This document shows positions 585 through 32,000 of a DNA stretch of 32,000 nucleotides, one piece after another. Positions within the stretch are counted from its first letter, which is position 1. The number at the start of each line of letters is the position of its first letter. Source of the DNA: Patescibacteria group bacterium (GTDB lineage Bacteria > Patescibacteriota > Patescibacteriia > 2-01-FULL-39-33); NCBI GenBank assembly GCA_041662745.1, contig JBAZRV010000005.1:74316-106315 (forward strand). The letters are read 5' to 3'. Position numbers and translations under genes: made by a program. The notes below the pieces were generated by a model. The model searched no databases, was not told the origin of the DNA, and worked only from the letters and a program-made list of their open reading frames with translations.

Positions 585-1661
585 ATGTCCTTTTTTTCCA
601 CCGACGAATTGGCTTTCGGTCTGGATATCTCCGATCATTTCTTGCGGCTGATCCAGCTTAAGCGCTTCGGTAAAAAAATAAAAATCCAATTATTCAACGA
701 GGTGAAGTTGCCGCCGCAAACCGTGGTCAGCGGCAAAGTTGTCAATAGCCAATATTTTGTCCAAGCGCTGAAACAGCTCACCGGCACCAAACGCGGACTG
801 GGCGGATTAAGCAATGAAGCTGTCGTGGCCCTGCCTCAAGCCGGCACCTTTCTCAAAACCTTAGAAATTGCCGCCAACAATGAGGAGGAACTCCTGCCCA
901 AAATTGAGGAACTGTTGCCGCAAAGCCTGCCTCTGGCCCTGGAAGAGATCTACTACGATTGGCAAACCATTAAAAGCCAGGAGGGCGTTTACACCATTCT
1001 GGTCGGAGCCGCTCCGCGGGCATTGGTTGATTCATATTCTTCCGCCCTAAACAGCTTAGGCATCCTGCCGGTGGTATTTGAAATTGAAGCTATTGCCATC
1101 GCCCGATTGCTGGTTGAACGCGCCGGCGACACTCGGCCGCAGATTATTGCCGATTTGGGAGCTAACCGCAGCAGCCTGATCCTCTGCGAGGGATCTGACG
1201 TCAAATTCAACGTAACCCTGGCTTTGTCCGGCAAGCAGATTGACCAATATATCGCCGAATCGTTGGAATTGGATTTGGGTAAAGCCGAGCAAGCCAAGAT
1301 TATCTGCGGCTTAAGCCAGGATAAGTGCCATGGCGCCGTTCTGGAACTGCTCGTACCGCTAATTGACGAGCTGGCGACGCAAATCCTCCATGCTGTTGAT
1401 TTCTACCAAAATAATTTTTCCTCTCCGGGTTTAATTGAACAAATCCAGCTTTGCGGCGGTTTATCCGGACTGACGGGCTTAAGCCGAGAAATTAAAAATC
1501 GCCTTAATACGCCGGTTGTCAGCGCCGAACCGTTCAAAAATATCGTTAATCCCGATCCTCACTATTTCACGGCTGAAAAATCGCAATCTTTCGTTCCCGC
1601 CATCGGCCTGGCCCTGAGAGGCTTGTCGCCCAAAACTTTTTATGATCACAATCAGGCTTAA
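585..1661 (+). CDS. pilM: type IV pilus assembly ATPase-fold protein PilM
   Basis: 358-aa ORF with a PilM-like N-terminus (FGLDISDHFLRLIQLK) and actin/HSP70-like length and pattern. Followed by overlapping pilN- and pilO-like genes. Confidence 0.8.
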   Translation: MSFFSTDELAFGLDISDHFLRLIQLKRFGKKIKIQLFNEVKLPPQTVVSGKVVNSQYFVQALKQLTGTKRGLGGLSNEAVVALPQAGTFLKTLEIAANNEEELLPKIEELLPQSLPLALEEIYYDWQTIKSQEGVYTILVGAAPRALVDSYSSALNSLGILPVVFEIEAIAIARLLVERAGDTRPQIIADLGANRSSLILCEGSDVKFNVTLALSGKQIDQYIAESLELDLGKAEQAKIICGLSQDKCHGAVLELLVPLIDELATQILHAVDFYQNNFSSPGLIEQIQLCGGLSGLTGLSREIKNRLNTPVVSAEPFKNIVNPDPHYFTAEKSQSFVPAIGLALRGLSPKTFYDHNQA

Positions 1662-2211
1662 CTTGGTTCCGCCCAAGCAAAAAAATCAATTAAAAAACAA
1701 TCGCCTTTACCAAGCCGTCCAAGAGTCGCTGACCTTATTGTTTTTATTCGCCGCCATTATCAGTATTCTGCTTTTGATTTCCCGTTATTTCTTGGAACAG
1801 CAATTAAGCGAAATGATCACCCAAAATGCCGCCAATATTTATTCCAATCAGCTGGTCGCCAAAAAGATAAACGTCTTAAACCAAGAGATCAACGCCTCTT
1901 TGGGCATACAAAAAAATTACCAACCGGTAACTCCGATTATCTCCGCCATCTCCTACACCCTGCCGGCCAATGTCGCTATCAGCAGTTTGCGTTTTTTCCG
2001 CCAAGAAAGCCGAATAGAATTTTCCGGCAGTACCAAAACCCGAGATGACCTGATGAAATTTAAAAATTATTTGGATAAGGCCGATTGGCTCAGCGACGCC
2101 GAAATCCCCTTGTCCGCTTTAGTGCCCAAAGAAAACAATGCTTTCAGCATCAAAGCCAATATCAACTATCAGGCGCTAACGCCCACCAATGTATGTCCCG
2201 AATCAAAATAG
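1642..2211 (+). CDS. pilN: type IV pilus assembly protein PilN-like (bitopic membrane protein)
   Basis: 189 aa. N-terminal IRLNLVPPK resembles the conserved PilN INLLP motif, followed by one TM (LTLLFLFAAIISILLLI). The ATG overlaps the pilM 3' end by 20 nt. Confidence 0.7.
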   Translation: MITIRLNLVPPKQKNQLKNNRLYQAVQESLTLLFLFAAIISILLLISRYFLEQQLSEMITQNAANIYSNQLVAKKINVLNQEINASLGIQKNYQPVTPIISAISYTLPANVAISSLRFFRQESRIEFSGSTKTRDDLMKFKNYLDKADWLSDAEIPLSALVPKENNAFSIKANINYQALTPTNVCPESK

Positions 2212-2744
2212 ACAAAAAAATAATTTGGGCGCTTATCCTATTCTTGGCTTGGACAGCTTTGATTATTGTTATTATTTATCCTACGGCCAACAAAATTATC
2301 GCTATCCGCCAAGAGATACTCAAAGAACGCCAGGATTTGGAGAAAAAACTGGCCATGGGTCTTAATGCCAATAAAATCAAGGAAGAGGCCGATGCCGTGG
2401 AGAAAATAATGCCGGGACTGCGCCAAGTTTATATCAAGCCGGGGCAAGAGCTGGAATTTCTTAATTACCTTGACGGTTTAGCCGCCAAAAATAACCTGGC
2501 TATAGACATCAAGCCCGATTTCACCGGTAAAGCCCTTTCCCCGGAAATCACTCGTTTGCCGATTGAACTGATTTTATCAGGAAAATTTGAAAATGTTTTG
2601 ACAACCCTAAACGAATTGGAACGCCGAGACACTTATTTTATAATTGACGTTTTAAGCTTAACGGCGCAAAACGACGGTTTAGTGGCCGCCGCTGTCAGCG
2701 GTAACATTTATCGGCAAGAAAATAAAATCGCCGCCACCAAATAA
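2193..2744 (+). CDS. pilO: PilO-like type IV pilus assembly protein
   Basis: Start moved to ATG 2193 (MSRIKIDKKIIWALILFLAWTALIIVIIY...). Has a TM, a coiled-coil segment and an alpha/beta domain, which is the PilO topology. The track start at 2085 lies inside pilN in another frame. Overlaps the pilN end by 19 nt. Confidence 0.6.
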   Translation: MSRIKIDKKIIWALILFLAWTALIIVIIYPTANKIIAIRQEILKERQDLEKKLAMGLNANKIKEEADAVEKIMPGLRQVYIKPGQELEFLNYLDGLAAKNNLAIDIKPDFTGKALSPEITRLPIELILSGKFENVLTTLNELERRDTYFIIDVLSLTAQNDGLVAAAVSGNIYRQENKIAATK

Positions 2745-2745
2745 T

Positions 2746-3240
2746 ATGGGCTTAATGGAAAAAATAAAAAATATAACCCAAGTAAAGACTGAAATGGAAG
2801 AGACGGAACTGTCAGGTCCAAACAAGGCCAAAACCAACAAGATTAAGCTGGATTGGTTCTGGCTGGCCAGATTAATGTACCCCCTGACCATAATCGTTAT
2901 CGTTGTCATTTTGTTTATCGTCATGTCCTTCCTGTATCAACAGGTCTATCAGACAGCGACTCAGATGGATTTGTTGGCCGGGTTAAAAAGCAAGGTTATA
3001 GAAGTCCAAATCAATGGCAATTCCTTAAACCAGATCAAGGAACTGTTATGCCGGAAAACCTCCACGCCGGCCATCTGGCCCTTCAAAAATCCTTTTGTTT
3101 TTTCGCCAAACGATCCGCCCTTGCGGCCGTCAAATGATTTTCAACCCTTAAATATCATTAATAATTTGCTTAGCACCAGCACCGCCTCTTCCACTGCTCT
3201 TTCTTCCACCACCAAAGCTACCAGTACCATTAAAAATTAA
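2746..3240 (+). CDS. hypothetical single-TM protein with Ser/Thr-rich tail; fourth gene of the pil operon
   Basis: 164-aa ORF starting 1 nt after the pilO stop. One TM (LMYPLTIIVIVVILFIVMSFLY) and a C-terminal STSTASSTALSSTTKATST tract. Followed by a terminator. Confidence 0.6.
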   Translation: MGLMEKIKNITQVKTEMEETELSGPNKAKTNKIKLDWFWLARLMYPLTIIVIVVILFIVMSFLYQQVYQTATQMDLLAGLKSKVIEVQINGNSLNQIKELLCRKTSTPAIWPFKNPFVFSPNDPPLRPSNDFQPLNIINNLLSTSTASSTALSSTTKATSTIKN

Positions 3241-9949: not shown

Positions 9950-10765
9950 CTACGTCAACGGGCTTTTGATATTCCTGATGCTCGGATTAGTAACATGAGT
10001 ATAAATTTGCGTGGTGCGGATATTCTGATGCCCCAAAAGTTCTTGCACATAACGAACATCAGTGCTGTTTTCTAACAAGTGGGTGGCGAAACTGTGGCGC
10101 AAACTGTGAAAAGTTGCTTCCTTCTTGATGCTTGACTTTTCAAGCACTTTGGCAAAAATCGCCTGTAAAGTTCTTTCCGTCAATTTTCCGCCACGTTCAC
10201 TCTCAAACAGATAGTCATTGCCCGAGCGATCACTGATAAGCGCGGCTAATTTACTTTTAATTTTTTCCGGAACAATCGTCAAGCGATCCTTTCGTCCCTT
10301 GCCCTGATCCACCTTAAGCGTCAACTCATTAAGAAAAACGTCTTTGATTCTTAAATTAACTGCCTCACTGACTCTAAGTCCGGCGCCATAAGACAAAGCC
10401 AAAATTAGCTTATGTTTCTCATTATCGGTGTTGCTTATCATCAGATTTATTTCCTCCCGGCTCAAAACCACCGGCAACCGCTTATTTTTTTTGGCTAATT
10501 TAAAATCAATATGTTGAGGCTTTTTTAGAATTTCGCGATAAAAAAACTTAATAGCGTTAAGGCACAAGTTGATCGTCTGAGGGGAATAGCCTTTTTCCTG
10601 CTTGATTAAAATAAACTCTTTAATTTTAGCGGAATCCGCCGCCATGGGGTTGTCATTTACAAAACATAGAAAGTCATTCAGATAATGAATATAACTATTG
10701 ATGGTCTTTCGGCTGTAGTTCCTGATTTTTAGCTCAATTATTGTTTTATCCGAATAACTTTGCAT
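9950..10765 (-). CDS. tyrosine recombinase, XerC/XerD family
   Basis: Start moved to ATG 10765 ([25 protein letters not shown]...). The upstream part of the track ORF is promoter/dif-like DNA. Catalytic residues are in the expected context: [34 protein letters not shown]. Confidence 0.88.
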
Positions 10766-10853
10766 AAATAGGGTAAAAAGGCTATAATTTATATGTAAAT
10801 TGATTATATCAACTATTCGTAAAATAATCAATATCCACACATTATACGAAAAC

Positions 10854-10882
10854 AATTCGCATAAGCGCTAGTTATGTGAAAT
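10854..10882. other. dif-like Xer recombination site candidate
   Basis: AATTCGCATAA-GCGCTAG-TTATGTGAAAT. The arms form a 9/11 inverted repeat. They match the E. coli dif arms GGTGCGCATAA and TTATGTTAAAT at 8/11 and 10/11. An extra arm copy, TTATACGAA, lies at 10842-10850. Confidence 0.55.
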
Positions 10883-10916
10883 CTTAAAAAAACAAACTTT
10901 TTATTAATTTAAACTT

Positions 10917-11225
10917 ATGAAACCGTGGTTTAAAAATGGCTGCTGGGGAGTAGCCGTCGCGACGATCTTAGCTTTAGCCTCATGGATAATTTGTATTATT
11001 GTTTATGCCCCTGATTTTAAATATTGGGCACAACCGCTTTGGTTATTCTTTTCATTTCCCGGGGCAATCATTATCGGAGTCGCTATGTTTCTGATGTTTG
11101 ACTACTATCCCCCGCGCATAATAGATTCATTTTCATTAATTTTAAGTACGGCTATTTCAATGGGAATTTATTTCTTATTTGGCCTCTTTGTTGGTTGGAT
11201 AATTAAAAAAATAAAAACATGGTAA
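10917..11225 (+). CDS. hypothetical integral membrane protein (3 predicted TM)
   Basis: 102-aa ORF, strongly hydrophobic (GVAVATILALASWIICIIVY, FPGAIIIGVAMFLMF, ISMGIYFLFGLFVGWII). No family recognised. Confidence 0.6.
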   Translation: MKPWFKNGCWGVAVATILALASWIICIIVYAPDFKYWAQPLWLFFSFPGAIIIGVAMFLMFDYYPPRIIDSFSLILSTAISMGIYFLFGLFVGWIIKKIKTW

Positions 11226-11308
11226 ATATCGGGATTATAATTTTAGTTATCTTGATAGTGGCCGGCGCAATAATTATGGGTATGAGGGAAGATAAGCATA
11301 ACCCATAA
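11219..11308 (+). CDS. possible 29-aa single-TM micro-protein
   Basis: The ATG overlaps the upstream stop (ATGgTAA). Sequence MVNIGIIILVILIVAGAIIMGMREDKHNP. Below the track size cutoff and supported only by coupling and hydrophobicity. Confidence 0.35.
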   Translation: MVNIGIIILVILIVAGAIIMGMREDKHNP

Positions 11309-11381
11309 AATACTAAAACACGTCGGCAACATTGGCAAAATCAACAAGATGGATTGACACAGATCATCGTTCCGCCTTGTC

Positions 11382-11410
11382 TTGACTTTTTTACTTCTCT
11401 TGGCTATAAT
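11382..11410 (+). promoter_or_regulatory. near-consensus sigma70 promoter inside the islet
   Basis: TTGACT (11382-11387), 17 nt, TATAAT (11405-11410). About 90 nt upstream of the SD-led ATG at 11499. Confidence 0.7.
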
Positions 11411-11498
11411 AAATAATCAGAGCAAAAAGAACCTTAAAATCCAAATAACCCATGGTAAGCGACTTTTTAGATCAATGCCACATGGAAGGAGGTTAATA

Positions 11499-11948
11499 AT
11501 GAACTCCAAGATTTTCAAAAAGCCGTATATCAAAGTGGAAATCACCGACACTGCCGTGTCGGGCAGTATGTTGTTTAGAAAACTGGGATCATGGTGCGAG
11601 GCGGAATCGTCGGTTCTAATGTGGGAAACAACCTACGAAGAAGCGCCCCTGCAACAATACTTTGCCACTACGGGAAGCAATGCGGGGAAAAAAACTGATA
11701 CTGCCGGCGGTAATTGGAGAATTGAATTCCAATTTGTCCGAGTCAACACTGGCGCTGAAAGAGGGTTTTTTGATGGCGCGATTATCATTGCCGGATTCAT
11801 CAAGAACACTTTGGAAGCGACCAACGATGAATCGCAACCGGCTTATTTATTATCAATTAATTCCCGATCATTGAAGGGCGAGCAAACATTCTTATCCGCC
11901 CCCGATCTCTGGAAGACGCTCACTAATTTGGGAGTGAAAAAAACTTAG
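11499..11948 (+). CDS. hypothetical protein (149 aa)
   Basis: Start placed at ATG 11499, preceded by GGAAGGAGG with a 6-nt spacer. The track start at 11382 would include the promoter. No recognisable domain. Confidence 0.65.
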   Translation: MNSKIFKKPYIKVEITDTAVSGSMLFRKLGSWCEAESSVLMWETTYEEAPLQQYFATTGSNAGKKTDTAGGNWRIEFQFVRVNTGAERGFFDGAIIIAGFIKNTLEATNDESQPAYLLSINSRSLKGEQTFLSAPDLWKTLTNLGVKKT

Positions 11949-12169
11949 GACATTTTTGAATCAAAAAGAGGAGAATTATACCCGAATCATTGCTAAAAAT
12001 ACGGGGGCAATAATATTCAATTCGTGGAATACCCTCATGATCATCCTAATTACTATGATAGCATCAGTGAAATCCATTGCCAGAATTGCGACCGACGTTT
12101 CGGCCGTTGGTCAGGCAAAGAATTAAAAGAAGGCGAATGCGAGAAACCTTATAGTAAGGAGAATTAAAC

Positions 12170-12460
12170 ATGACTAAAAAAAGGTTCATTGAACTGCATG
12201 GCCAATCTGCTTGGGACCTGCTAGTGGAGACGATTGAACCGCCGTTTGCCTGGATGAAAAAATTTATGCCCAGTGACGACAAAATGTCAGAACGCGGTCA
12301 CAAAACCGTTATGCGGCTTCTTGAACGGCTCGGCATAGTCGAAGCAACTGGCCTTAATGAGGCTGAACAAAAATCATGCGAAAAAGACTTAGAAATTGCC
12401 CGATTAGAAAAAGAAATAAAGAAATTGCGAAAACAACTTGAGCAAGGTGACCGACTATGA
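12170..12460 (+). CDS. hypothetical protein with C-terminal coiled coil (96 aa)
   Basis: ATG preceded by AAGGAG with an 8-nt spacer. C-terminus DLEIARLEKEIKKLRKQLEQ. No family recognised. Confidence 0.65.
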   Translation: MTKKRFIELHGQSAWDLLVETIEPPFAWMKKFMPSDDKMSERGHKTVMRLLERLGIVEATGLNEAEQKSCEKDLEIARLEKEIKKLRKQLEQGDRL

Positions 12461-12530
12461 CTAAAACTCAATTTGAAGTCCAAAGATGGCAATACTTTAA
12501 TCAATATAACAACCAAGGAGGACTCTAATT

Positions 12531-16439: not shown

Positions 16440-16465
16440 AATTTTAGACGTTAATTTTAGACGTT
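16440..16465. repeat. perfect 13-bp tandem duplication spanning the ftsX stop codon
   Basis: AATTTTAGACGTT occurs twice (16440-16452 and 16453-16465). The second copy contains the last two codons and the TAA of ftsX on the minus strand. Confidence 0.9.
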
Positions 16466-17374
16466 TAAATATTTGCCAATGGCCACCGCCGAAGAAACAA
16501 TGTTGACGGCGGTAATGGCTAACAATTCCGTACCGAAGATATAAACAAAATTAGCATTAAAATAACCGGTCAAATCAAAGGTGGCGCCGGCAAAAAAACC
16601 GGAAACATACGGTTGCAACACCGATAACAAAGGATAGAAAAAAACTATGGTAATAAATACCGCGACGATTCCGGCAATAACGCTTTCCAAAATAAAAGGC
16701 GAACGGATAAACCAATTGGAAGCCCCGACCAACTTCATGATGCCGATTTCATTTTGGTGAGTGAAAATAGCCACGCGAACCGTATTAAAAATTATCAAGA
16801 TGGAAATAAGAGCGAAGATGCCGATAACGAAATAAGCGGCGCGGCGCACCGTATCGGCAATGCCGTTAATCCGCGAAATCACCAATTGATTATCATCATA
16901 ATTCTTTTCCTCAATCAACTCGGCAAAAGATGGATCATCGATGGCTTTTAGAATCTCCGGGTAATCCTTGAGATCCTTGGCTTTGATTACCAGGGTGGCG
17001 CTCATAGGGTTGGCGGATAACTCTTTAAGCGTCTCCTGAATCTTAACGTCGCCGGCATGCTTCTCCTTAAACGCTTCCAGATTGTCTTCAGATGAACGAT
17101 AAGTGATATTTTTGACTTGAGACAATCCTTCCAGATGGGATTTGACTTCGGCGACTTTGCTTTCCCTGACTTCCGGCTTGAAATAAACTGAGACATCAAT
17201 GCGGTCTTTAACCGCCGCAATGGCCGAGTCGGAAATAACATTGACGACCAGAAGCAGATTAACGGAAATCAAAGTTAAAAAAATCACAAAAACAGTGGCC
17301 AGAGACAGCCAAATATTGCGCCAAAAAGACTGCAGGGCGAAAAAAATTGAACGATTTAAAGTCAAAAGAAACAT
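16457..17374 (-). CDS. ftsX: cell division ABC transporter permease FtsX
   Basis: 305 aa. N-terminal TM, a large extracytoplasmic loop and three C-terminal TMs. Contains MKLVGASNWFIRSPFILE. Starts 3 nt after the ftsE stop. Confidence 0.88.
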   Translation of the reverse strand: MFLLTLNRSIFFALQSFWRNIWLSLATVFVIFLTLISVNLLLVVNVISDSAIAAVKDRIDVSVYFKPEVRESKVAEVKSHLEGLSQVKNITYRSSEDNLEAFKEKHAGDVKIQETLKELSANPMSATLVIKAKDLKDYPEILKAIDDPSFAELIEEKNYDDNQLVISRINGIADTVRRAAYFVIGIFALISILIIFNTVRVAIFTHQNEIGIMKLVGASNWFIRSPFILESVIAGIVAVFITIVFFYPLLSVLQPYVSGFFAGATFDLTGYFNANFVYIFGTELLAITAVNIVSSAVAIGKYLNV

Positions 17375-17377
17375 AAA

Positions 17378-18058
17378 TTAGATTACATATTTCCCTACTT
17401 TTTGATCTCCGACCACTAAGCCTTCATCCAAAGTAATAACGCGACGCTTGAGGGAATTAACAATTTCTTTATTATGAGTCACCATCACGACAGTGGTGCC
17501 AAACTCGTTAATTTTTAATAATAAATCAATAATATCCTTGGTGTTTAGGGCGTCCAGATTGCCGGTCGGCTCATCGGCCAAAAGCACCTTGGGACGATGA
17601 ATCAGGGCACGGGCGATGGCCACGCGCTGTTTCTCTCCGCCGGACAACTCATGCGGATAACGCGCCAGCTTATCCTGCAGATCCACAATAGACAGAACTT
17701 GGGGTACCACCGCCTGAATACGGCTTTTAGTGGCGCCGGCAACCTGCAAAGCGAAAGCCACATTCTCAAAGACCGTTTTCTTGGGCAAAAGCTTGAAATC
17801 CTGAAACACTACGCCGATTTGCCGGCGCAATGACGGTATGCTGCGCTTCTTGATATTAGTGATATCCCAACCGCCGATTATCACCTGACCGCTATCGGGA
17901 GGCAGCTCGGCAATAAGCAGGCGAACAATAGTTGTCTTGCCTGAACCGGATTGGCCGACAATGGAGACAAACTCTCCCGGCTCAATATGAATATTAGCGC
18001 TTTTAAGCGCTTCAGTGGTGGGCGGAAATTTTTTTGAGACGTCAACAAGATGGATCAT
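17378..18058 (-). CDS. ftsE: cell division ATP-binding protein FtsE
   Basis: 226 aa. Walker A GQSGSGKTT, signature LSGGEKQRVAIARAL, Walker B VLLADEPTGNLD. Paired with ftsX. Confidence 0.9.
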   Translation of the reverse strand: MIHLVDVSKKFPPTTEALKSANIHIEPGEFVSIVGQSGSGKTTIVRLLIAELPPDSGQVIIGGWDITNIKKRSIPSLRRQIGVVFQDFKLLPKKTVFENVAFALQVAGATKSRIQAVVPQVLSIVDLQDKLARYPHELSGGEKQRVAIARALIHRPKVLLADEPTGNLDALNTKDIIDLLLKINEFGTTVVMVTHNKEIVNSLKRRVITLDEGLVVGDQKVGKYVI

Positions 18059-18096: not shown

Positions 18097-18921
18097 TTAC
18101 TTATTAATTGCTATGGCGGAGGCCGGCTCCTGATACGCCTCAACTTTTACATCAATAACCCCCAATTTGGTAGAAGCGATTTTTTTAAACGCTTCTTTGC
18201 CCAAATCAATTACCCGATCGGGATGAACAGCCGGATCCGGTCCCCAATCCTTGATTGTCACTACGACTTGCTTGCCATTGGCCAAATTGGTCACGAGCAC
18301 CTTGGCGCCGCGAGAAAACTGGGTGGAAGCGGCCATCAGCTCCCGGCGATATTTGGGATGAACATACCAAGAAGCGCGTCCGACCGATTCCGGCTCTTTA
18401 AGCAAGACAAAAATCAACTTGCCGGGAAAAGTGACGTCGGCTGTGGCTGTATATTTTTTTAAATCTTTAACCGTCTCAAGACGGGTAAATTGACCATTGC
18501 TTTCGTCCCAATAATAAAGATTGCGCAAATCATTATCACCCGGATACGACATTATTATTTGCGGCAAAAAATTCCAATCAGAAGAAGTGGAGATACCCAA
18601 AAAATAAATATCGGATGCCGCCTCGGTCTTTTCCGGCAGAACGTAAGTTGAACTGGCAATGGCTGATTGCGGTATCAAAGACAATAGCTTGAAAGAGACG
18701 CTAGCCGTACTGGTTCCCTTGGCTACTCGAAAAGCCAGGGAGCCGTCCGACGACTTAACGACAAAATCGCCTTTTCTAATTGCCGGTATTAAATCAATCA
18801 CTATTAAATCCTCGGCCTGGGCAAAATGGCAAAACAAGCCAAAAGCGGCGAAACCGGCAAGCAATAAAGTAAAAAATAATCCCTCCCTCCAACTAAAATA
18901 ACGATTTCCGGGTTTTTTCAT
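18097..18921 (-). CDS. secreted protein with C-terminal RlpA-like double-psi beta-barrel (DPBB) domain
   Basis: Start moved to ATG 18921 (MKKPGNRYFSW..., signal/TM LFFTLLLAGFAAFGLF). C-terminus ASWYVHP...AASTQFSRGAKVLVTNLANGKQVVVTIKDWGPDP...RVIDLGKEAFKKI matches the RlpA pattern. The track extension to 19011 runs into tRNA-Gly. Confidence 0.75.
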   Translation of the reverse strand: MKKPGNRYFSWREGLFFTLLLAGFAAFGLFCHFAQAEDLIVIDLIPAIRKGDFVVKSSDGSLAFRVAKGTSTASVSFKLLSLIPQSAIASSTYVLPEKTEAASDIYFLGISTSSDWNFLPQIIMSYPGDNDLRNLYYWDESNGQFTRLETVKDLKKYTATADVTFPGKLIFVLLKEPESVGRASWYVHPKYRRELMAASTQFSRGAKVLVTNLANGKQVVVTIKDWGPDPAVHPDRVIDLGKEAFKKIASTKLGVIDVKVEAYQEPASAIAINK

Positions 18922-18923
18922 AG

Positions 18924-18951
18924 TTGATTTTTTAGGCAAATTTGCTATAAT
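18924..18951 (+). promoter_or_regulatory. promoter of the tRNA-Gly/tRNA-Thr pair
   Basis: TTGATT (18924-18929), 16 nt, TGcTATAAT (18943-18951). tRNA-Gly starts 13 nt downstream. Confidence 0.7.
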
Positions 18952-18963
18952 AATATTGTTATT

Positions 18964-19034
18964 GCGGGTATGGTTTAGTGGCAGAACGTGACCTTCCCAA
19001 GGTTGAGGCACGAGTTCGATTCTCGTTACCCGCT
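18964..19034 (+). tRNA. tRNA-Gly (anticodon CCC)
   Basis: Hand-folded cloverleaf. Acceptor GCGGGTA/TACCCGC, D stem GTTT/GAAC, anticodon stem TGACC/GGTTG with loop TTCCCAA, T arm ACGAG-TTCGATT-CTCGT, discriminator T. No encoded CCA. Confidence 0.9.
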
Positions 19035-19050
19035 CAAAAACTTAAAAAAT

Positions 19051-19123
19051 GCCAAGATAGCTCAGTTGGTAGAGCAACGGTATCGTAAACCGTGGGTCGG
19101 GAGTTCGAATCTCCCTCTTGGCT
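19051..19123 (+). tRNA. tRNA-Thr (anticodon CGT)
   Basis: Acceptor GCCAAGA/TCTTGGC, D arm GCTC-AGTTGGTA-GAGC, anticodon stem ACGGT/ACCGT with loop ATCGTAA, T arm GGGAG-TTCGAAT-CTCCC. No encoded CCA. Confidence 0.9.
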
Positions 19124-25968: not shown

Positions 25969-26799
25969 TTAACGAGTAGAAGTTGCGGTATCGGATATGT
26001 TGGATATAACGGGGGAAGAGGCTGAGGCGCCATTAGGCATGCTTTCGGAAACAGCGGGAGAAATTATTTCGCCAATACCCTTAAGCGCTTGCAAATCAAT
26101 GGCCGCCAAACCCAGGAAATAGCGTTTGCCATCAACCGGCGAAACATACCAGGCGCCGGTCTTACCGCCGTCAAGCAAAAGTATCTTACCCTTGAAGTTA
26201 GCCGCGAATTTCAGATCAATTGGCTGTTTAATGCTGGCGTCCTCGCCGCTAGTGCCGGCCTGACCCAAGGGAATGCGCACCAAATCATTGGCACTAATGG
26301 CCACACCGCGATTTAAGATGGTATAAAAAGCGTCGGGATCAATATTGGCCAAAGCCGACTTGAAAGTATTATAGATCCTGACGGCTTCGTCCTTTTGCTG
26401 AATCAAATCCTGGACTTTCTGAGTCTGCAAAGCGATAGCGCTCTGGCTGGCATTAACATCCTCTTGCATTTTAGCCAAATCATTCAAGCTTTTAGTTAAT
26501 TGAGCGTCCTTGCTTGCCAGAGTCTGATTGACCGTCTCCAATTCTGTTTGCGATTGCCTTAGCGACGACTGCAACTGCACCGAAGCCGACAATAAAGCGG
26601 CATTATCGGTATAAATTTTGGCCGCATAAGCGGTCTCGGCAATAAATAAAACGATAATCACGCCATAAAAAAACCATCTTTGCCAGCGTCGGAATCTTAT
26701 TTCCTTGCCCACTTGGACCTGGGGCACCACCGGCGCACCGCAATTGGGGCAATTAGGCACATTATCCGGTATTTGGCGTTTGCAATTGAAACAAATCAT
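25969..26799 (-). CDS. hypothetical zinc-ribbon / TM / coiled-coil protein
   Basis: 276 aa. N-terminal CFNC...CPNC zinc ribbon, TM (FFYGVIIVLFIAETAYAA), long coiled coil, and a C-terminal segment with GKILLLDGGKTGAWYVSPVDGKRYFLG. Confidence 0.7.
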   Translation of the reverse strand: MICFNCKRQIPDNVPNCPNCGAPVVPQVQVGKEIRFRRWQRWFFYGVIIVLFIAETAYAAKIYTDNAALLSASVQLQSSLRQSQTELETVNQTLASKDAQLTKSLNDLAKMQEDVNASQSAIALQTQKVQDLIQQKDEAVRIYNTFKSALANIDPDAFYTILNRGVAISANDLVRIPLGQAGTSGEDASIKQPIDLKFAANFKGKILLLDGGKTGAWYVSPVDGKRYFLGLAAIDLQALKGIGEIISPAVSESMPNGASASSPVISNISDTATSTR

Positions 26800-26999: not shown

Positions 27000-27008
27000 T
27001 GGTATAAT
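27000..27008 (+). promoter_or_regulatory. extended -10 promoter element for the giant ORF
   Basis: TGgTATAAT followed by ATAAGCAAAC, the same downstream context as the ATPase promoter. 27 nt upstream of GTG 27035 and 69 nt upstream of ATG 27077. Confidence 0.6.
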
Positions 27009-27076
27009 ATAAGCAAACTAAATAAGATTCTCTCGTGATTAATTCCAAAAAGAAGAGCAAGGAAGAGAGTAAAAAT

Positions 27077-30000
27077 ATGCAGGGAGAGAAATCACTGCGT
27101 CGATTTTTTGGTTACGAATTATTGTTAATTAAGCGCCACGGCTTTGACGCCCTGCTTTTTGCTGTTTTTTTAATTCTCATCTGGGCTTCAATAAAAATTC
27201 TGGGTTTAAAAAGTATTTTTTTAGTTTTACTACTGTTAGCGGATATTGCCGTATATGTCTCCTATCGTTATTCCATCTCTATCCCCGGCATCGCCAAAAT
27301 TTCTGCTCACTATATAAGAATTTCCACTCAAAATTACAGCCAACTTAATTCACGTCATTTCCGCTTCAAATTGCTATATTATCTAACGCTGTTAATACAC
27401 GACATTGATTCCGGTTTCGGCCTGATCATAAACCAAGATCTGCCGTTAGGCATTGATTTCAATAAAAAAAACAGACTCAAAACAGAACCGGTTAAAGCTG
27501 AATATCTGAAAGAATCATTAAAGGCTCATCACTATAAAAAGAAAAAAGCAACTTTCGCCACCATAACTGCTTCACTCGTCATTACCGTTTTGATTCTATC
27601 CGTAGCGCTTTTAATCACGGGCAATGCCAAAGCCGCCACCTATGACTGGATCCAAACTTCCTGGAGCGGCGGAGCTGATACCGTAACCGTGGCCACCCAT
27701 CCCGACGACAAAACCGACTGGAACAAATATTATTCCAAGGACGGGGGTATTGAGGCCGGCTCTATCATGGCGCTATCTCTTTATGCTTCTACCAGTATTG
27801 ATACTCTAAGTGTTGATTTCAACGCCGGCACAGCGAGTAATACCTATATTTCCAGTACAGGTGCGGTTATTCTACTAAAAATAGAGAATGCTTCCTGTTC
27901 TATTGCTTCCGAATGTGCTAATGGTGCCTGTGTAGCAGGTCAATGCTATGCTTGTGGAACATCTACTGTCGCCTACGAAGGAGGTCCCTGGGACAGTGCC
28001 GGCACATCGACTTCCACGGATGGCTACTATCGTACCGTCGCCATAGGTGACCAATGCTGGTTTAAGGATAATCTTAATATTGGTACTGCCATCGGTTCCA
28101 AATTGGCTAATAATTCTACGCTTCAGAATCAAACAGATAATGAAGTTATTGAGAAATATTGCTACAGCTATATTCAACAAGGAAATGCCGGACAAATAAC
28201 TGCTGGCCTCGCCGATTGCGTCGTTTATGGCGGTTTATACCAATGGCCGGAAGCGGTCCAATACAACAATGGTGTGACACTTACAACTGGTGAAACTGTG
28301 ACCGACGGCAACATCCAGGGCATCTGCCCGACTGGTTGGCACATCCCCAGTGACACTGAATTCTCCGCTCTCTCAACTTACCTGGGTGGCGATAGTGCTA
28401 GTGGTGATAATTTGAAGGCTGTCACTACGTGGAATGCTCCAAATACCGGGGCAGATAATTCCTCTGGTTTTACCGCATTGGCGTCAGGCATCCGCTTTAC
28501 TACTGGATTATTCACTAATCGTGGCGAATACTCTTATTTTTGGGCCTCGTCGCCAAAAACCGCCACATTAACCTGGAGGCGTCTACTGTCGTATAATGGT
28601 GTTACATTTAGTCGCGATTCTAACCTTAGAACAATAGGATTTAGTGTCCGTTGTCTAAAAGATTCCGTGCCTGAAGCGCAGGTAGTCTCCAATTCTGGCA
28701 CCTTCACCTCAGCCGTCAAAAATTTAGACGGACTCAGTTCAGAGGTTACTCTTACTTGGTCAGCTTCCGTAACTCCGGGAACCAGCGCTGTTGTTCTGCA
28801 AGTTCGTTCCGGCTCCACGGATTCCCCCGTTTCCGATTCTGACCCGAATTGGACCGCTTGGACCGAAACCGCCAGCGGCGTTCCTTTGGCTGAAGCGCTT
28901 CTCGGCCGGCATTATTTGCAATATCGTGCTATTTTATCTTCTACTGATTTAAATAATTCTCCCAGTTTGGATGAGATTACCCTTGATTGGACCGCCTACC
29001 CTTCTTCGGCTTCGCTCATATCCTCTCCTTACGACTCGGGATCGGCAAGCAATATCATTCCTAAAATAACTTGGACGGCGACTAACACTTCTACGCTTAA
29101 TACGGTCAAATTCCAAATCAGATCAGCCGCTGCCACTTCCACTTTGAGTTCCGCCCCCTGGTGCGGTTTCGCCGATACGGGAGAGGCTTGCACGGGTGAT
29201 AATTATTTTGACTACGCCAAAAATGGGACTCAGATTACTGATTCCGAACATCCGTTAATATCCGGGGGCGATGACAGATACTTCCAATACCGGATAGAAC
29301 TGGCTTCAGGCGGCACTTCCACTCCGACAGTTTCTTCAGTTACTGTCACTTACGTGGTTAACGCCGCTCCCGAATTCACTACCACCACTTCTGTCAGCCA
29401 AAGATCTCCCGACGGCAAAGTCCAAATAAATTACTCCGCCCTGGATTCTGACACTGCTTCCTCGGGGGTTAGCTGCCCCGATTGCGTTATCGCCTCATTC
29501 CGCTATTCAATTGATGACGGCACATCCTGGACCAGTATTTCCGAACAATATTTATCTGCTCCGGAAGGGGCCGACGCCGGTTACGCCACCACCACTATCG
29601 GCACCGCAACCAGCACTTATTCCGTCCTTTGGGATGCTAAAAGCCAGATTAACGGCATCTATTCCACCACTACCAAAATAGAGATTACGCTTAATGACTT
29701 GGAAGGCGGAAATAACCTTGTTGTCACTACTACCGAGGCCTTTACTCTGGATGTGGCTAATCCCGACCTCGGCGCTAAACCGATAATAGTCAAAGCCAAC
29801 GGAGCCGTAATTAACGGCGCTACTGCTCAATTGACTCTTGATGCTTCCGATGACACTCTCGGCCTGCAGATGTGTCTGACTTTAGACAGCACTTATGCCA
29901 GTTGTAATTATACTGATTACGATACTGCCGGCGCTATCATTCTAACCGCCGATCCTAAACGCGTTTATGCTTCATTCAAAGACGCTTATGGCAATATTTC

Positions 30001-32000
30001 CACTGCCAGCGCTCTGACTCCTGAAACGCCCAATAACATAATTATCAAAGACGTTTCTGATGTTGAAGCCTCGGTTTATCAAGAATTCATCGTTTGGAAG
30101 GCCATAGCTTCCACTACTTTCAAATATTACCACGTGGAGCATTCAACTGACGGAGTGGCTTACGAAGAACTGGATCTTATAGATAATAGCAGTATTAATT
30201 TCTACTTTCATCAGGGATTAACCAATAATAGTTACCATTATTACCGGATTTATACGGAAAATACCAATGGCGATACTTCTTTTTATACTAATATTGTAAG
30301 TGACGCTACTGACGGCGTCGGCGGCACAAATCCCAACCCGCCTATTCTTACTAACGTGGAAGTTACCGCAACCACTACCCAATCGGCCACTATTGAATGG
30401 GACACCAATGAATTAGCCAACTCTTCAGTGCATTATTCCACTGATTTAAGTTTCAATATCACGGTCGGTTCGCTGAGCATGGCCCAAGATGCTACCCATA
30501 TCGGCCGGCATCAAGTAGTCCTGACCAATCTGACTCCGGGCCAATCCTATAATTTTACCGTGGAATCGGAAAATGCCCTGGGCATTTCCGGCGTCAACAC
30601 TAATGAAAGCTTGGGCTACCCTTTTGATACTATTTCCGGTCCGGTCATCAGCAACGTTACTGCCAATAATTTGACCAACAACAGCGCTACTATCGTCTGG
30701 AATACCAATCTAAGTTCGGATTCCGCCGTCTATTACACTACTTCATCAGAATTCACCGCCTTTGAAAATGCCGGGGTTAGCACTGTATTGACCAACCACG
30801 AAGTGACTATTAGCGGCCTTACTCGCGGCACTGTTTATTATTATTATGTCAAATCAGGCGTGGCCACTGACGACAATGCCGGTGTTTATTATAGCTTTAC
30901 CACGCCTTACGACAATGTTGCTCCAGTCATCAGCAACACCGCTGCCACTATTGTCATTGACACTCAAGCTCTGATTAATTGGACTACCAATGAACTCTCT
31001 GACTCCGAAGTGGTTTACGGCACTGAATCAAATAATTATACTCTTAATTCAACCGATGCTAATTTAGCTCTCAAGCACAGCATTGTCCTCCCGGATCTTG
31101 CCACTTCCACCACTTATTATTATAAAGTCATTTCCTCGGATGCCTCAAGCAATGAGGCATCTTCCACTGAAGAGTTATCTTTCACCACCTTAGAAACCTT
31201 GTCTCAAGAATCAGCGATATTGCTAAGGGAGGCGGCAGCCGAATTAAGCGGTGAAATTACCGGGGCCGCGAATGTCACTTGCGGCGGCGGAGGGGGCGGC
31301 GGTTCCATTGACCGCAGCAAACCGGTTATCAGTGACATAAAAATAAGCGAGGTTGAGGCTAACGGAGCCGTAATAAGTTGGAGCACTAATAAAGCGGGTA
31401 GCAGCATCGTGAGATATGGCACCGATAAGCACTACGGCAATGCCGTGGTCTATTATGACAATACAAAAAATCATAGCGTACCGTTAAAGAATCTTGATTC
31501 TTCAACGGAATATAATTATTTGGTGGATACCATTGATGGAAACGGCAACATTGGGACTTCCGTTGAAGCGTCCTTTGTCACTACTGATATTCTGGGATTA
31601 GCCGTTGACGCCAACGGCAATCCAGCCATAACAGTCAATGAAGCCGGCGTTAGCAGTAACAGCAACGATAACCTCTTCTCCGCCGCCATGGTCAAGGCCG
31701 CTTCCTACATCACGGCCATGGCCGGGAAGGTTTCGGTCAATACGTTGGAGAGCAATCTGACTTCCAATTATAATCTCATCCGCCAGCTGTCTTCCTCGGT
31801 CCCCGCTCCCCTGCTTTCCGGCGAACCTCGCGTCCTGACCACCGCCGATACGGCCACTGTCACCTGGAGCACAGACAAGGAGGCCAATTCCCTGGTGGCC
31901 TTGGCTCCGGAAGGCAAATATAATCCCTCTTCAGGCGATAACGCCTATGTTCAGACCGTGGGCAACCCCAACGAGGCCGTCACCAAGCATACGGTCCTGA
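27077..32000 (+). CDS. giant multi-domain surface protein, 5' part only (at least 1641 codons, continues past the window)
   Basis: The frame with codons at 27077, 27080... contains no stop through the last full codon at 31997-31999. I checked the frame by hand at 27602, 28022, 28622, 29822, 31262 and 31982. An in-frame GTG at 27035 is an alternative start. The ORF is not in the supplied track. The translated product shows TM segments, a FISUMP-type domain (...VAIGDQCWFKDNL...YGGLYQW...CPTGWHIPSDTEF...GFSVRCLKD), an Asp-box (SIDDGTSW) and repeated FN3-like units. Confidence 0.9.
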   Translation, partial: MQGEKSLRRFFGYELLLIKRHGFDALLFAVFLILIWASIKILGLKSIFLVLLLLADIAVYVSYRYSISIPGIAKISAHYIRISTQNYSQLNSRHFRFKLLYYLTLLIHDIDSGFGLIINQDLPLGIDFNKKNRLKTEPVKAEYLKESLKAHHYKKKKATFATITASLVITVLILSVALLITGNAKAATYDWIQTSWSGGADTVTVATHPDDKTDWNKYYSKDGGIEAGSIMALSLYASTSIDTLSVDFNAGTASNTYISSTGAVILLKIENASCSIASECANGACVAGQCYACGTSTVAYEGGPWDSAGTSTSTDGYYRTVAIGDQCWFKDNLNIGTAIGSKLANNSTLQNQTDNEVIEKYCYSYIQQGNAGQITAGLADCVVYGGLYQWPEAVQYNNGVTLTTGETVTDGNIQGICPTGWHIPSDTEFSALSTYLGGDSASGDNLKAVTTWNAPNTGADNSSGFTALASGIRFTTGLFTNRGEYSYFWASSPKTATLTWRRLLSYNGVTFSRDSNLRTIGFSVRCLKDSVPEAQVVSNSGTFTSAVKNLDGLSSEVTLTWSASVTPGTSAVVLQVRSGSTDSPVSDSDPNWTAWTETASGVPLAEALLGRHYLQYRAILSSTDLNNSPSLDEITLDWTAYPSSASLISSPYDSGSASNIIPKITWTATNTSTLNTVKFQIRSAAATSTLSSAPWCGFADTGEACTGDNYFDYAKNGTQITDSEHPLISGGDDRYFQYRIELASGGTSTPTVSSVTVTYVVNAAPEFTTTTSVSQRSPDGKVQINYSALDSDTASSGVSCPDCVIASFRYSIDDGTSWTSISEQYLSAPEGADAGYATTTIGTATSTYSVLWDAKSQINGIYSTTTKIEITLNDLEGGNNLVVTTTEAFTLDVANPDLGAKPIIVKANGAVINGATAQLTLDASDDTLGLQMCLTLDSTYASCNYTDYDTAGAIILTADPKRVYASFKDAYGNISTASALTPETPNNIIIKDVSDVEASVYQEFIVWKAIASTTFKYYHVEHSTDGVAYEELDLIDNSSINFYFHQGLTNNSYHYYRIYTENTNGDTSFYTNIVSDATDGVGGTNPNPPILTNVEVTATTTQSATIEWDTNELANSSVHYSTDLSFNITVGSLSMAQDATHIGRHQVVLTNLTPGQSYNFTVESENALGISGVNTNESLGYPFDTISGPVISNVTANNLTNNSATIVWNTNLSSDSAVYYTTSSEFTAFENAGVSTVLTNHEVTISGLTRGTVYYYYVKSGVATDDNAGVYYSFTTPYDNVAPVISNTAATIVIDTQALINWTTNELSDSEVVYGTESNNYTLNSTDANLALKHSIVLPDLATSTTYYYKVISSDASSNEASSTEELSFTTLETLSQESAILLREAAAELSGEITGAANVTCGGGGGGGSIDRSKPVISDIKISEVEANGAVISWSTNKAGSSIVRYGTDKHYGNAVVYYDNTKNHSVPLKNLDSSTEYNYLVDTIDGNGNIGTSVEASFVTTDILGLAVDANGNPAITVNEAGVSSNSNDNLFSAAMVKAASYITAMAGKVSVNTLESNLTSNYNLIRQLSSSVPAPLLSGEPRVLTTADTATVTWSTDKEANSLVALAPEGKYNPSSGDNAYVQTVGNPNEAVTKHTVL

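Follow-up and report, generated by a model that had tools for sequence, protein, structure and literature searches.

The open frame and its missing end

The last 5 kb of a 32,000-nucleotide stretch of a Patescibacteria group bacterium contig (the window, by which we mean the whole stretch) are occupied by one open frame on the + strand that runs off the end of the DNA, and the question raised by this locus is what its giant product is and with which partner it might work. We consider it somewhat more probable than its opposite that the product of the gene is an adhesin-like fibre which is exported by the Sec route, binds a glycan and works together with a type VII ABC pair, namely the MacB-type ATPase and permease whose genes adjoin those of its close relatives. 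Translation of the + frame 27035-32000 gave 1655 codons without a stop (last base of the frame, 31999). Since an in-frame TAA lies four codons ahead of GTG 27035, this GTG (NCBI's choice, 1655 codons) and ATG 27077 (1641 codons, better ribosome-binding site) are the only possible starts, and with either of them the original prediction of a frame of more than 1640 residues that stays open to the window edge was borne out. At the stop-triplet frequency of the window (0.046), the probability that such a frame is open by chance is ~1e-34. Codon usage, on which that prediction had let the gene depend, is coding-like in this frame only (r = 0.56 against the other window genes, compared with 0.07 and -0.19 for the other two frames), the GC content of the open reading frame (ORF) matches that of the remaining window, and a search for significant DNA-level repeats within it returned none, which rules out a mis-assembly through such repeats. 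The product is identical to the NCBI entry MFA6228388.1 ('MAG: FISUMP domain-containing protein, partial [Patescibacteria group bacterium]', a metagenome-assembled genome, MAG) from a 106-kb contig; as this 'partial' record has the same length as the window translation (1655 aa), the contig stops at the window end, and the gene does leave the window, as had been stated. Only three antisense ORFs of 92-106 aa (27875-28195, 28534-28818 and 29552-29830) and no + strand ORF had been listed for this region; the antisense ORFs are taken as shadows of the coding frame, and the absence of the giant gene from the list was a correct observation, but its cause was a rule that omits ORFs running off the source. 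The ORF at 27035/27077-31999 (+) is the 5' part, cut by the contig end, of a genuine gene of the Patescibacteria (Candidate Phyla Radiation, CPR), and corresponds to ~86% of an expected product of ~1,915 aa.

What lies beyond the contig end can be read from the closest relatives. P0002 (1924 aa, from a Buchananbacteria MAG) is 55% identical over 98% of the query, and, like P0003 (2110 aa) and P0045 (1966 aa), it runs past the last residue of the window, by 253-262 aa in these three proteins. The extra part consists of two FN3 units and a tail, ...TILTPKQxESVFQVIxKNFEDxFGWxxxxx, that is amphipathic if helical (hydrophobic moment ~0.45). The earlier statement that full length and C-terminal anchoring cannot be told from the window stands insofar as ~260 residues lie beyond the contig end, but the relatives show what to expect there: the amphipathic tail, no LPXTG in the tails, and a C-terminal transmembrane (TM) or hydrophobic segment in 0 of 151 proteins. 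A metagenome scan with the last 300 aa did not recover the 3' end of the window gene, as no identical contig was found; the best match, at ~57-64%, was the P0003 locus.

Leader, head and rod of the protein

The N-terminal membrane domain of the original prediction exists in the form of three hydrophobic helices (aa 37-56, 61-77 and 173-195, by hydropathy) behind a K/R-rich stretch (aa 1-36), but it is probably not an anchor. The first two helices form a clade-specific leader module, the TM1-TM2 hairpin (27143..27265, +), which is kept in P0002 and P0003 and is followed by a second K/R-rich, presumably cytoplasmic segment (27266..27550, +; aa 78-172) with the conserved motifs YxSYRY..SxPGI and LIHDIDSG. 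The third helix and its c-region, GNAKA (27551..27634, +), end in a predicted signal peptidase I site, AKA/ATY, between aa 200 and 201. According to the charge distribution (positive-inside), the N-terminus and aa 78-172 are cytoplasmic and everything past aa 200 is outside. In 73 relatives the same register was observed (hydrophobic helix, x-x-(A/G/S), A-T-Y-x-F-x-Q-x-x-W-S-G-G...H..NQTGW..Y), and 71 of them have A, G or S at -1 together with a small or aliphatic residue at -3, as compared with 17% expected from composition. The window protein has the same combination of a signal-like helix, a -3/-1 site and ATY.F.Q..WSGG, with AKA/ATYDWIQTSWSGG at aa 198-213. Small residues at -3/-1 are the signal peptidase I rule, and because this rule holds in 71/73 relatives, we read the 'membrane domain' as a leader that is removed, the third helix probably being cleaved at AKA/ATY by signal peptidase I. 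An N-terminal hydrophobic helix is present in 117 of 135 complete relatives, and 91 of the 135 have just one such helix. The module of two TM helices and a cytoplasmic segment was found by phmmer in 6/151 family representatives, all of the closest clade, in agreement with tblastn; the N-terminal 188 aa gave no match in a word-indexed protein search, Pfam or NCBIfam.

The mature protein starts with the conserved 'WSGG' N-domain (27635..27886, +; aa 201-284; ATYDWIQTSWSGG...H..D.TDW..Y), which was detected in 76 of the 151 representatives (phmmer) and which contains the predicted W-x-Q-T-S-W-S-G-G segment as DWIQTSWSGG (aa 204-213). It is joined to the head by a Cys-rich linker, NASCSIASECANGACVAGQCYACG (27887..27958, +; aa 285-308), which is kept in P0002 and duplicated in P0003. 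The Cys-rich knot that had been proposed here is thus present as a Cys-rich stretch, but this has only four cysteines of its own (C-x5-C-x4-C-x4-C), the fifth belonging to the FISUMP consensus, and there is no AlphaFold2 (AF2) model of a knot, both the WSGG domain and the linker having been left unmodelled (pLDDT ~40).

The head itself is a FISUMP domain (Fib_succ_major, PF09603/TIGR02145; 27959..28663, +; aa ~309-543, ending in GFSVRCLKD). It matched its Pfam model with 1.8e-30 (107 bits, cut-off 33.9, profile positions 1-187 of 187) and its NCBIfam model with 4.7e-31 (108.8 bits, cut-off 41.65), and AF2 modelled it with a pLDDT of 80-97. While FISUMP had therefore been named correctly, with scores above both curated cut-offs, the C-type-lectin-like fold named with it emerged only as a non-significant structural trend: Foldseek found no significant match of the head model in the PDB, and the top of its list was made up mostly of C-type-lectin-like domains and included a Bacteroides fimbrial tip protein, the Legionella Lcl C-terminal domain, Bd2740, snaclecs, CD72 and BDCA2. 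A PDB sequence search with the head gave no match. On the model, a C-type-lectin-like fold is plausible for the head, and we infer that it is a variable ligand-binding module whose ligand is most likely a glycan.

Behind the head lies the 546-aa core that defines the family (28697..30334, +; aa 555-1100). Its AF2 model (pLDDT 89.2) is all-beta and consists of five beta-sandwich modules, A-E; the core has no Pfam or NCBIfam match, and Foldseek retrieved generic tandem FN3/Ig chains only, with no enzymatic or special fold among them. Modules A (aa 555-655; ..YLQYR..SPSLDEITL) and B (aa 656-776; ..YFQYR..TPTVSSVTVTYVVNAAPEF) are the two predicted beta-sandwiches with (Y/F)xQYR at their ends. Module C (aa 777-909) carries the motif that had given rise to the proposal of an Asp-box module, SIDDGTSW (aa 825-832; family form ..NGS.W..I). 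The Asp-box (BNR) is an S-x-D-x-G-x-T-W hairpin that is classically repeated in a beta-propeller; here the motif is single and sits inside a beta-sandwich, not a propeller, and the giant protein has no BNR match in Pfam, so that the likeness is one at the level of the motif only. Modules D (aa 910-999) and E (aa 1000-1100, FN3-like) complete the core.

The core passes into an array of FN3 units: three units of the Pur_ac_phosph_N type (30338..31189, +; aa 1102-1201, 1202-1295 and 1296-1385), a linker with a conserved helix-like LETLSQESAILLRE... and a Gly7 run (31190..31318, +; aa 1386-1428), a fourth unit (31319..31585, +; aa 1429-1517), a conserved non-FN3 linker (31586..31822, +; aa 1518-1596) and a fifth unit that is cut by the contig end (31823..31999, +; aa 1597-1655). 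The predicted number of at least five FN3-like units was confirmed, with starts at aa 1102, 1202, 1296, 1429 and 1597. Domain searches, which the original prediction had named beside codon usage as the place where the gene might fail, returned Pur_ac_phosph_N (Pfam, 3.3e-24, 85.7 bits against a cut-off of 30, four stretches) and fn3 (Pfam, 2.9e-08, 34.2 bits against 25, three stretches) in addition to FISUMP; PDB profile searches retrieved FN3 only, and Pfam found no catalytic domain anywhere in the giant protein. A borderline Pertactin match in the second linker (31508-31774, aa 1491-1580; 22.1 bits, cut-off 22) extends over the last part of the fourth FN3 unit and the probably helical linker behind it and is most likely spurious; with this score, and with relatives that have no barrel domain, an autotransporter passenger was rejected. 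As the protein is exported and non-enzymatic and combines a lectin-type FISUMP head with a long beta-sandwich/FN3 array, an adhesin-like surface protein, as had been suggested, is the most reasonable class.

A Patescibacteria family and its MacB-type neighbours

An exhaustive HMMER search with the 546-aa core as query against 1.84 billion cluster representatives (50% identity) returned 652 representatives with E <= 1e-3, of which 316 reached E <= 1e-30. Most of the core forms one colinear block in almost every one of the 150 top-ranked matches listed, and the start of this block ranges from residue ~10 to residue ~1460 in proteins of mostly 1,200-3,200 aa. A colinear core behind so variable a start gives an architecture of signal, WSGG N-domain, a head of 0-1,400 aa, core, FN3 array and tail; the window protein, whose own sequence was the query, has the colinear five-module core followed by the FN3 array. 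Core, FN3 array and tail are far more conserved than the head, and the tail, like the core, has no model in Pfam-A or NCBIfam. The heads are mostly unannotated, and FISUMP heads were found by phmmer in 2/151 representatives; P0045, for example, has a Gly-rich insert in place of FISUMP. In P0003 (L001 10001-16333), core modules A and B are separated by a discoidin (F5/8 type C) domain, and the Cys-rich motif is duplicated before a divergent FISUMP domain; the family thus tolerates inserts at more than a single site.

In a scan of one genome per species, which found 130 relatives, all reliably named relatives were Patescibacteria (Buchanan-, Falkow-, Magasanik-, Moran-, Wolfe-, Azam-, Niyogi-, Dojka-, Micro- and Saccharibacteria), and by its reliable labels the WSGG-core-tail family is Patescibacteria-specific. 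About 20 loci, including L006, L008, L009, L019-L021, L023, L044, L070, L072, L074 and L078, come from automated co-assembly MAGs and bear the unconfirmed labels 'uncultured Gammaproteobacteria', 'Bdellovibrionales', 'Pseudomonadales' or 'Chromatiaceae'; these labels are probably placeholders or mis-assignments, because the combination of giant gene and MacB cassette in these loci is that of bona fide CPR genomes. Adhesin-like surface proteins of giant size are known as a class, and no description of this family with its MacB-type cassette was found in the searchable literature: no single paper combined Patescibacteria, MacB and a surface protein, the co-mentions of CPR and MacB were unrelated to the cassette, and the remaining hits were generic adhesin papers.

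Conservation of core, FN3 array and tail beyond that of the head would also be expected of a part of a structural lattice, and a first alternative, which we regard as rather unlikely, is an uncleaved, N-terminally anchored envelope scaffold, structural or S-layer-like, with its head at the membrane and its FN3 array pointing outward or along the surface. In line with this, the 3-TM module is conserved at 41-52% identity among the closest relatives, suggesting a function of its own, and the family lacks both LPXTG and a C-terminal TM anchor. However, the -3/-1 pattern ahead of the conserved mature N-terminus (71/73) would be difficult to account for if no cleavage took place, a single short signal-like helix is all that most relatives have, and a hypervariable head on the membrane side combined with a conserved distal end would be the reverse of what is generally known of MSCRAMM- and RTX-type adhesins.

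The preferred reading, an exported fibre that works with an ABC pair, draws on the genes beside the relatives. Both close relatives adjoin genes for an ABC ATPase (~447 aa) and a permease (399 aa) with a MacB periplasmic core domain and four TM segments. By NCBIfam and Pfam likeness, the ATPase belongs with DevA, LolD, MacB and FtsE and the permease with MacB, LolC/E and FtsX, and the pair is, judged by these likenesses, a type VII ABC system. Among non-redundant loci with readable flanks, in which the pair was scored within 2.5 kb and tails were called by a hidden Markov model made from 97 tails, 34 giant ORFs ending in the tail had the pair and 10 did not, as compared with 1 and 11, respectively, of the ORFs without the tail (Fisher p = 2e-5). 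The ATPase gene lies directly downstream and on the same strand in 26 loci, with gaps of 3-135 bp in 22 of these (median ~24 bp); the pair lies upstream of the giant gene in 7 loci, and in four of the ten exceptions, to which Wolfebacteria CP011209 belongs, it is 1.7-6.5 kb off. The same arrangement was seen in independent metagenome contigs, chosen by C-terminal similarity, in every member with a 3' flank. Permease identity across the cassette-bearing CPR lineages is 29-64%, and the ~20-bp same-strand adjacency across such divergent lineages argues for co-transcription and a shared function, while strict conservation of the amphipathic tail at the C-terminus implies that its binding partner is conserved, too. 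No genes for a membrane fusion protein (MFP) or an outer-membrane protein (OMP) accompany the pair in the relatives. In the window itself, the DNA upstream of the giant gene contains no MacB-type pair, but a gene for a 276-aa protein and a type-I ABC exporter on the other strand; the pair is predicted, from the order in relatives, to lie just past the contig end.

The ATPase of the P0003 locus (L001 16357-17700) is extended at its C-terminus by ~200 aa, which contain no TM segment and have no Pfam match. In relatives, this extension contains an internal repeat, GGLGL(N/D)xR.A.K..., that is reminiscent of a helix-hairpin-helix, and the ATPase versions of Saccharibacteria and Dojkabacteria align over the ~225-aa ATPase core only.

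The pair would lose its meaning for the giant protein under a second alternative, to which we give less credence than to the scaffold: a released glycan-binding protein that is shed for nutrient scavenging or aggregation, the ABC pair having an unrelated job such as peptide or drug efflux. It agrees with the signal peptidase site and the lack of a recognised anchor, with the 10/44 relatives that lack an adjacent pair, and with the general annotation of MacB-type pairs as drug or peptide exporters, macB being common in Patescibacteria (PMC12455944). Against it stand the close same-strand adjacency that is maintained across divergent CPR lineages, the conserved tail with its implied partner, and the cost of a ~45 nm rod of at least 12 modules for a soluble binder in a ~1 Mb genome. 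Finally, that the frame is not a functional single gene but an assembly chimera, as the original prediction had considered, a pseudogene fragment or a composition-driven open frame is extremely improbable: the gene is incomplete, lying at a contig end, and repetitive genes are places where MAG assemblies may break or be joined wrongly, but this one is colinear with the 1924-aa relative over 98% of its length and end to end with independent relatives from other samples, has frame-specific codon usage and a ~1e-34 probability of being open by chance, and shows conservation of every module at the protein level and no significant DNA repeats.

A candidate attachment device and its surroundings

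In the adhesin-like fibre as we picture it, the Sec-type signal, i.e., the third helix of the 3-TM leader, would export everything past aa 200, and signal peptidase I would cut at AKA/ATY. The mature protein would comprise the WSGG N-domain and then, at its free end, the exchangeable and glycan-binding FISUMP head. An FN3-type module is ~3.5 nm long; the five core modules and ~7 FN3 units would form a rod of ~12 modules with an estimated length of roughly 45 nm. The missing C-terminus would, as in the relatives, end in the amphipathic tail (...TPKQxESVFQVIxKNFEDxFGW) and provide a cell-proximal docking element, via which a MacB-type ATPase and permease, predicted to be encoded just downstream, would probably, to go by gene order, hold, release or actuate the fibre. 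The fibre would most likely serve an epibiotic cell in attaching to a host cell or a polysaccharide surface. Our confidence falls from Sec export and cleavage through the extracellular rod, the free-end head and the proximal tail to docking on the permease. In its most specific form, which is an unlikely but concrete proposal by analogy, the tail of the fibre would dock on the extracytoplasmic core of the permease, and cytoplasmic ATP hydrolysis would be mechanotransmitted to the fibre, much as FtsEX passes movement on to PcsB, EnvC and CwlO; it would drive anchoring, extension, release or pulling by what would be a Patescibacteria-wide three-gene surface machine.

Several points weigh against a fibre that works with the ABC pair. 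The family is known from sequences alone, cleavage is predicted from the -3/-1 rule, and an uncleaved helix would put the FISUMP head beside the membrane, an odd geometry for an adhesin. A ligand was not found for any FISUMP domain, and the term 'FISUMP' is absent from the searchable literature. Both the tail and the ABC pair lie outside the window, 10 of the 44 tail-bearing relatives have no adjacent pair, and gene adjacency does not show physical interaction. Moreover, the cultivated Saccharibacterium with transposon-sequencing (Tn-seq) data has no obvious cassette: the MacB-type pairs of Southlakia are not beside a giant gene, and its functional data can therefore not be transferred. The essential 'FN3' protein of Southlakia, SEML1_0890, was rejected as a family member, being only 195 aa long.

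An association with the type IV pilus had also been proposed, as a pilus module lies in the same window. PilMN are indeed encoded there, but 24 kb away from the giant gene, and since a PilM homologue occurs within 10 kb in only 2/77 related loci (PilN in 0/77) and the conserved neighbour is the MacB-type pair, this association is unsupported. On the P0002 contig, the giant gene is followed by a gene for a second FISUMP protein (777 aa) and then by one for a T2SSE-type (PilB/PilT-like) ATPase; this ATPase, two genes downstream, is the only hint of a pilus connection and is not conserved.

Compared with known systems, the protein shares its head domain with the FISUMP proteins of Fibrobacter and Bacteroidota, many of which are also large, exported and multi-domain; unlike the window protein, these lack the WSGG N-domain, core and tail and share only 13-20% of the query, i.e., FISUMP. 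MSCRAMM-type fibrillar adhesins of Gram-positive bacteria resemble it in the Sec-type signal, the N-proximal head, the long beta-sandwich rod and attachment, which is proposed here, but they have an LPXTG anchor where the relatives of the window protein have an amphipathic tail and a MacB-type neighbour. A sortase-anchored LPXTG protein was accordingly not recognised in the family (C-terminal hydrophobic segment or basic tail in 0/151 relatives, tails without LPXTG). The cassette ATPase and permease belong to the same superfamily as FtsEX (with PcsB, CwlO, EnvC and RipC), MacB and LolCDE. Type VII ABC systems do not carry substrates through the membrane but work on partners outside the cytoplasm, which fits a Sec-exported partner with a helical docking tail. 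The partners of FtsEX and other type VII systems are, however, small hydrolase activators or lipoproteins, as opposed to the ~2,000-residue fibre proposed here. The FtsEX pair encoded in the window (16457-18058) is a canonical one and separate from the cassette. RTX adhesins of type I secretion systems (T1SS), such as LapA, SiiE and MpIBP, have in common with the window protein a giant beta-sandwich rod, a ligand-binding region, a C-terminal element and an ABC neighbour (SiiE review, PMC6272769). An RTX/T1SS adhesin was rejected on account of the Sec-type signal and the lack of an RTX match in Pfam. Furthermore, the neighbour is of the MacB type (four TM segments and a periplasmic core) and not an ABC_membrane exporter, and there are no MFP or OMP genes. 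The monoderm-like CPR cells are not known to have an outer membrane.

Taken by itself, the gene is ordinary, a partial and already annotated surface protein; what is added is the definition of a family and of its conserved MacB-type cassette. The question at stake is how CPR bacteria recognise and hold their hosts; among the components involved, genetic tests have so far covered only type IV pili and a few small adhesins (PMC10633639, PMC11623550). CPR genomes have been reported to encode multiple proteins of the cell surface that carry lectin, FN3, beta-propeller and sortase motifs (PMC5220378), and Southlakia to possess essential adhesins with FN3 and lectin domains (PMC10633639); the WSGG-core-tail family and its ABC cassette are not defined in these reports, and the Southlakia examples are different and much smaller. 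If the proposal is true, host specificity would have a concrete candidate determinant in a conserved fibre whose heads are exchangeable and whose partner is driven by ATP, and the three-gene machine would be an energised host-attachment device of epibiotic ultrasmall bacteria. Distant family members with the same cassette occur in MAGs of Saccharibacteria; cultivated members of this group can be manipulated genetically and may therefore offer a way to test the idea.

Ahead of ATG 27077, an extended -10-like element, TGgTATAAT (27001-27008, +), and a Shine-Dalgarno-like GGAAGAGAG (27060-27069) were picked out by eye as putative expression signals of the giant gene; the former has no -35 match and is not among the promoters found by a consensus scan. 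Rfam gave no RNA element at the giant gene, its matches being two tRNAs elsewhere in the window. Directly upstream and divergent, 25969-26799 (-) encodes the 276-aa protein mentioned above, which has an N-terminal zinc ribbon, one TM-like segment, a long coiled-coil and weak OmpH/MreC/FlbB-like matches; none of the 77 related loci yielded a homologue of it.

The remaining window contains a type IV pilus cluster at 585-3240 (+), with PilM (585-1661, 1.7e-38), PilN (1642-2211) and two unannotated ORFs that may be PilO/PilP-like (2085-2744, with a weak GspM-like match at E 0.0017, and 2746-3240), as well as genes for a NifS-like aminotransferase, an Rrf2 regulator, UvrA, a XerC/D-type integrase, CysRS, a MraY-type transferase, FtsX and FtsE, a DPBB protein, a PpiC-type rotamase, DivIC, a P-type ATPase, the type-I ABC exporter and two tRNAs; this gene set agrees with the Patescibacteria label of the source. 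The tRNAs, tRNA-Gly(CCC) and tRNA-Thr(CGT), lie back to back at 18964-19123 (+), and because the GTG start of the DPBB ORF (18097-19011, -) overlaps tRNA-Gly by ~48 bp, the true start of this ORF is probably further downstream. The lowest GC content of the window (0.37-0.42, as compared with ~0.46) was found at ~10000-12500, where only short ORFs are present (10917-12460); this stretch adjoins the XerC/D-type tyrosine recombinase gene (9950-10855, -) and may be the remnant of an integrated element.

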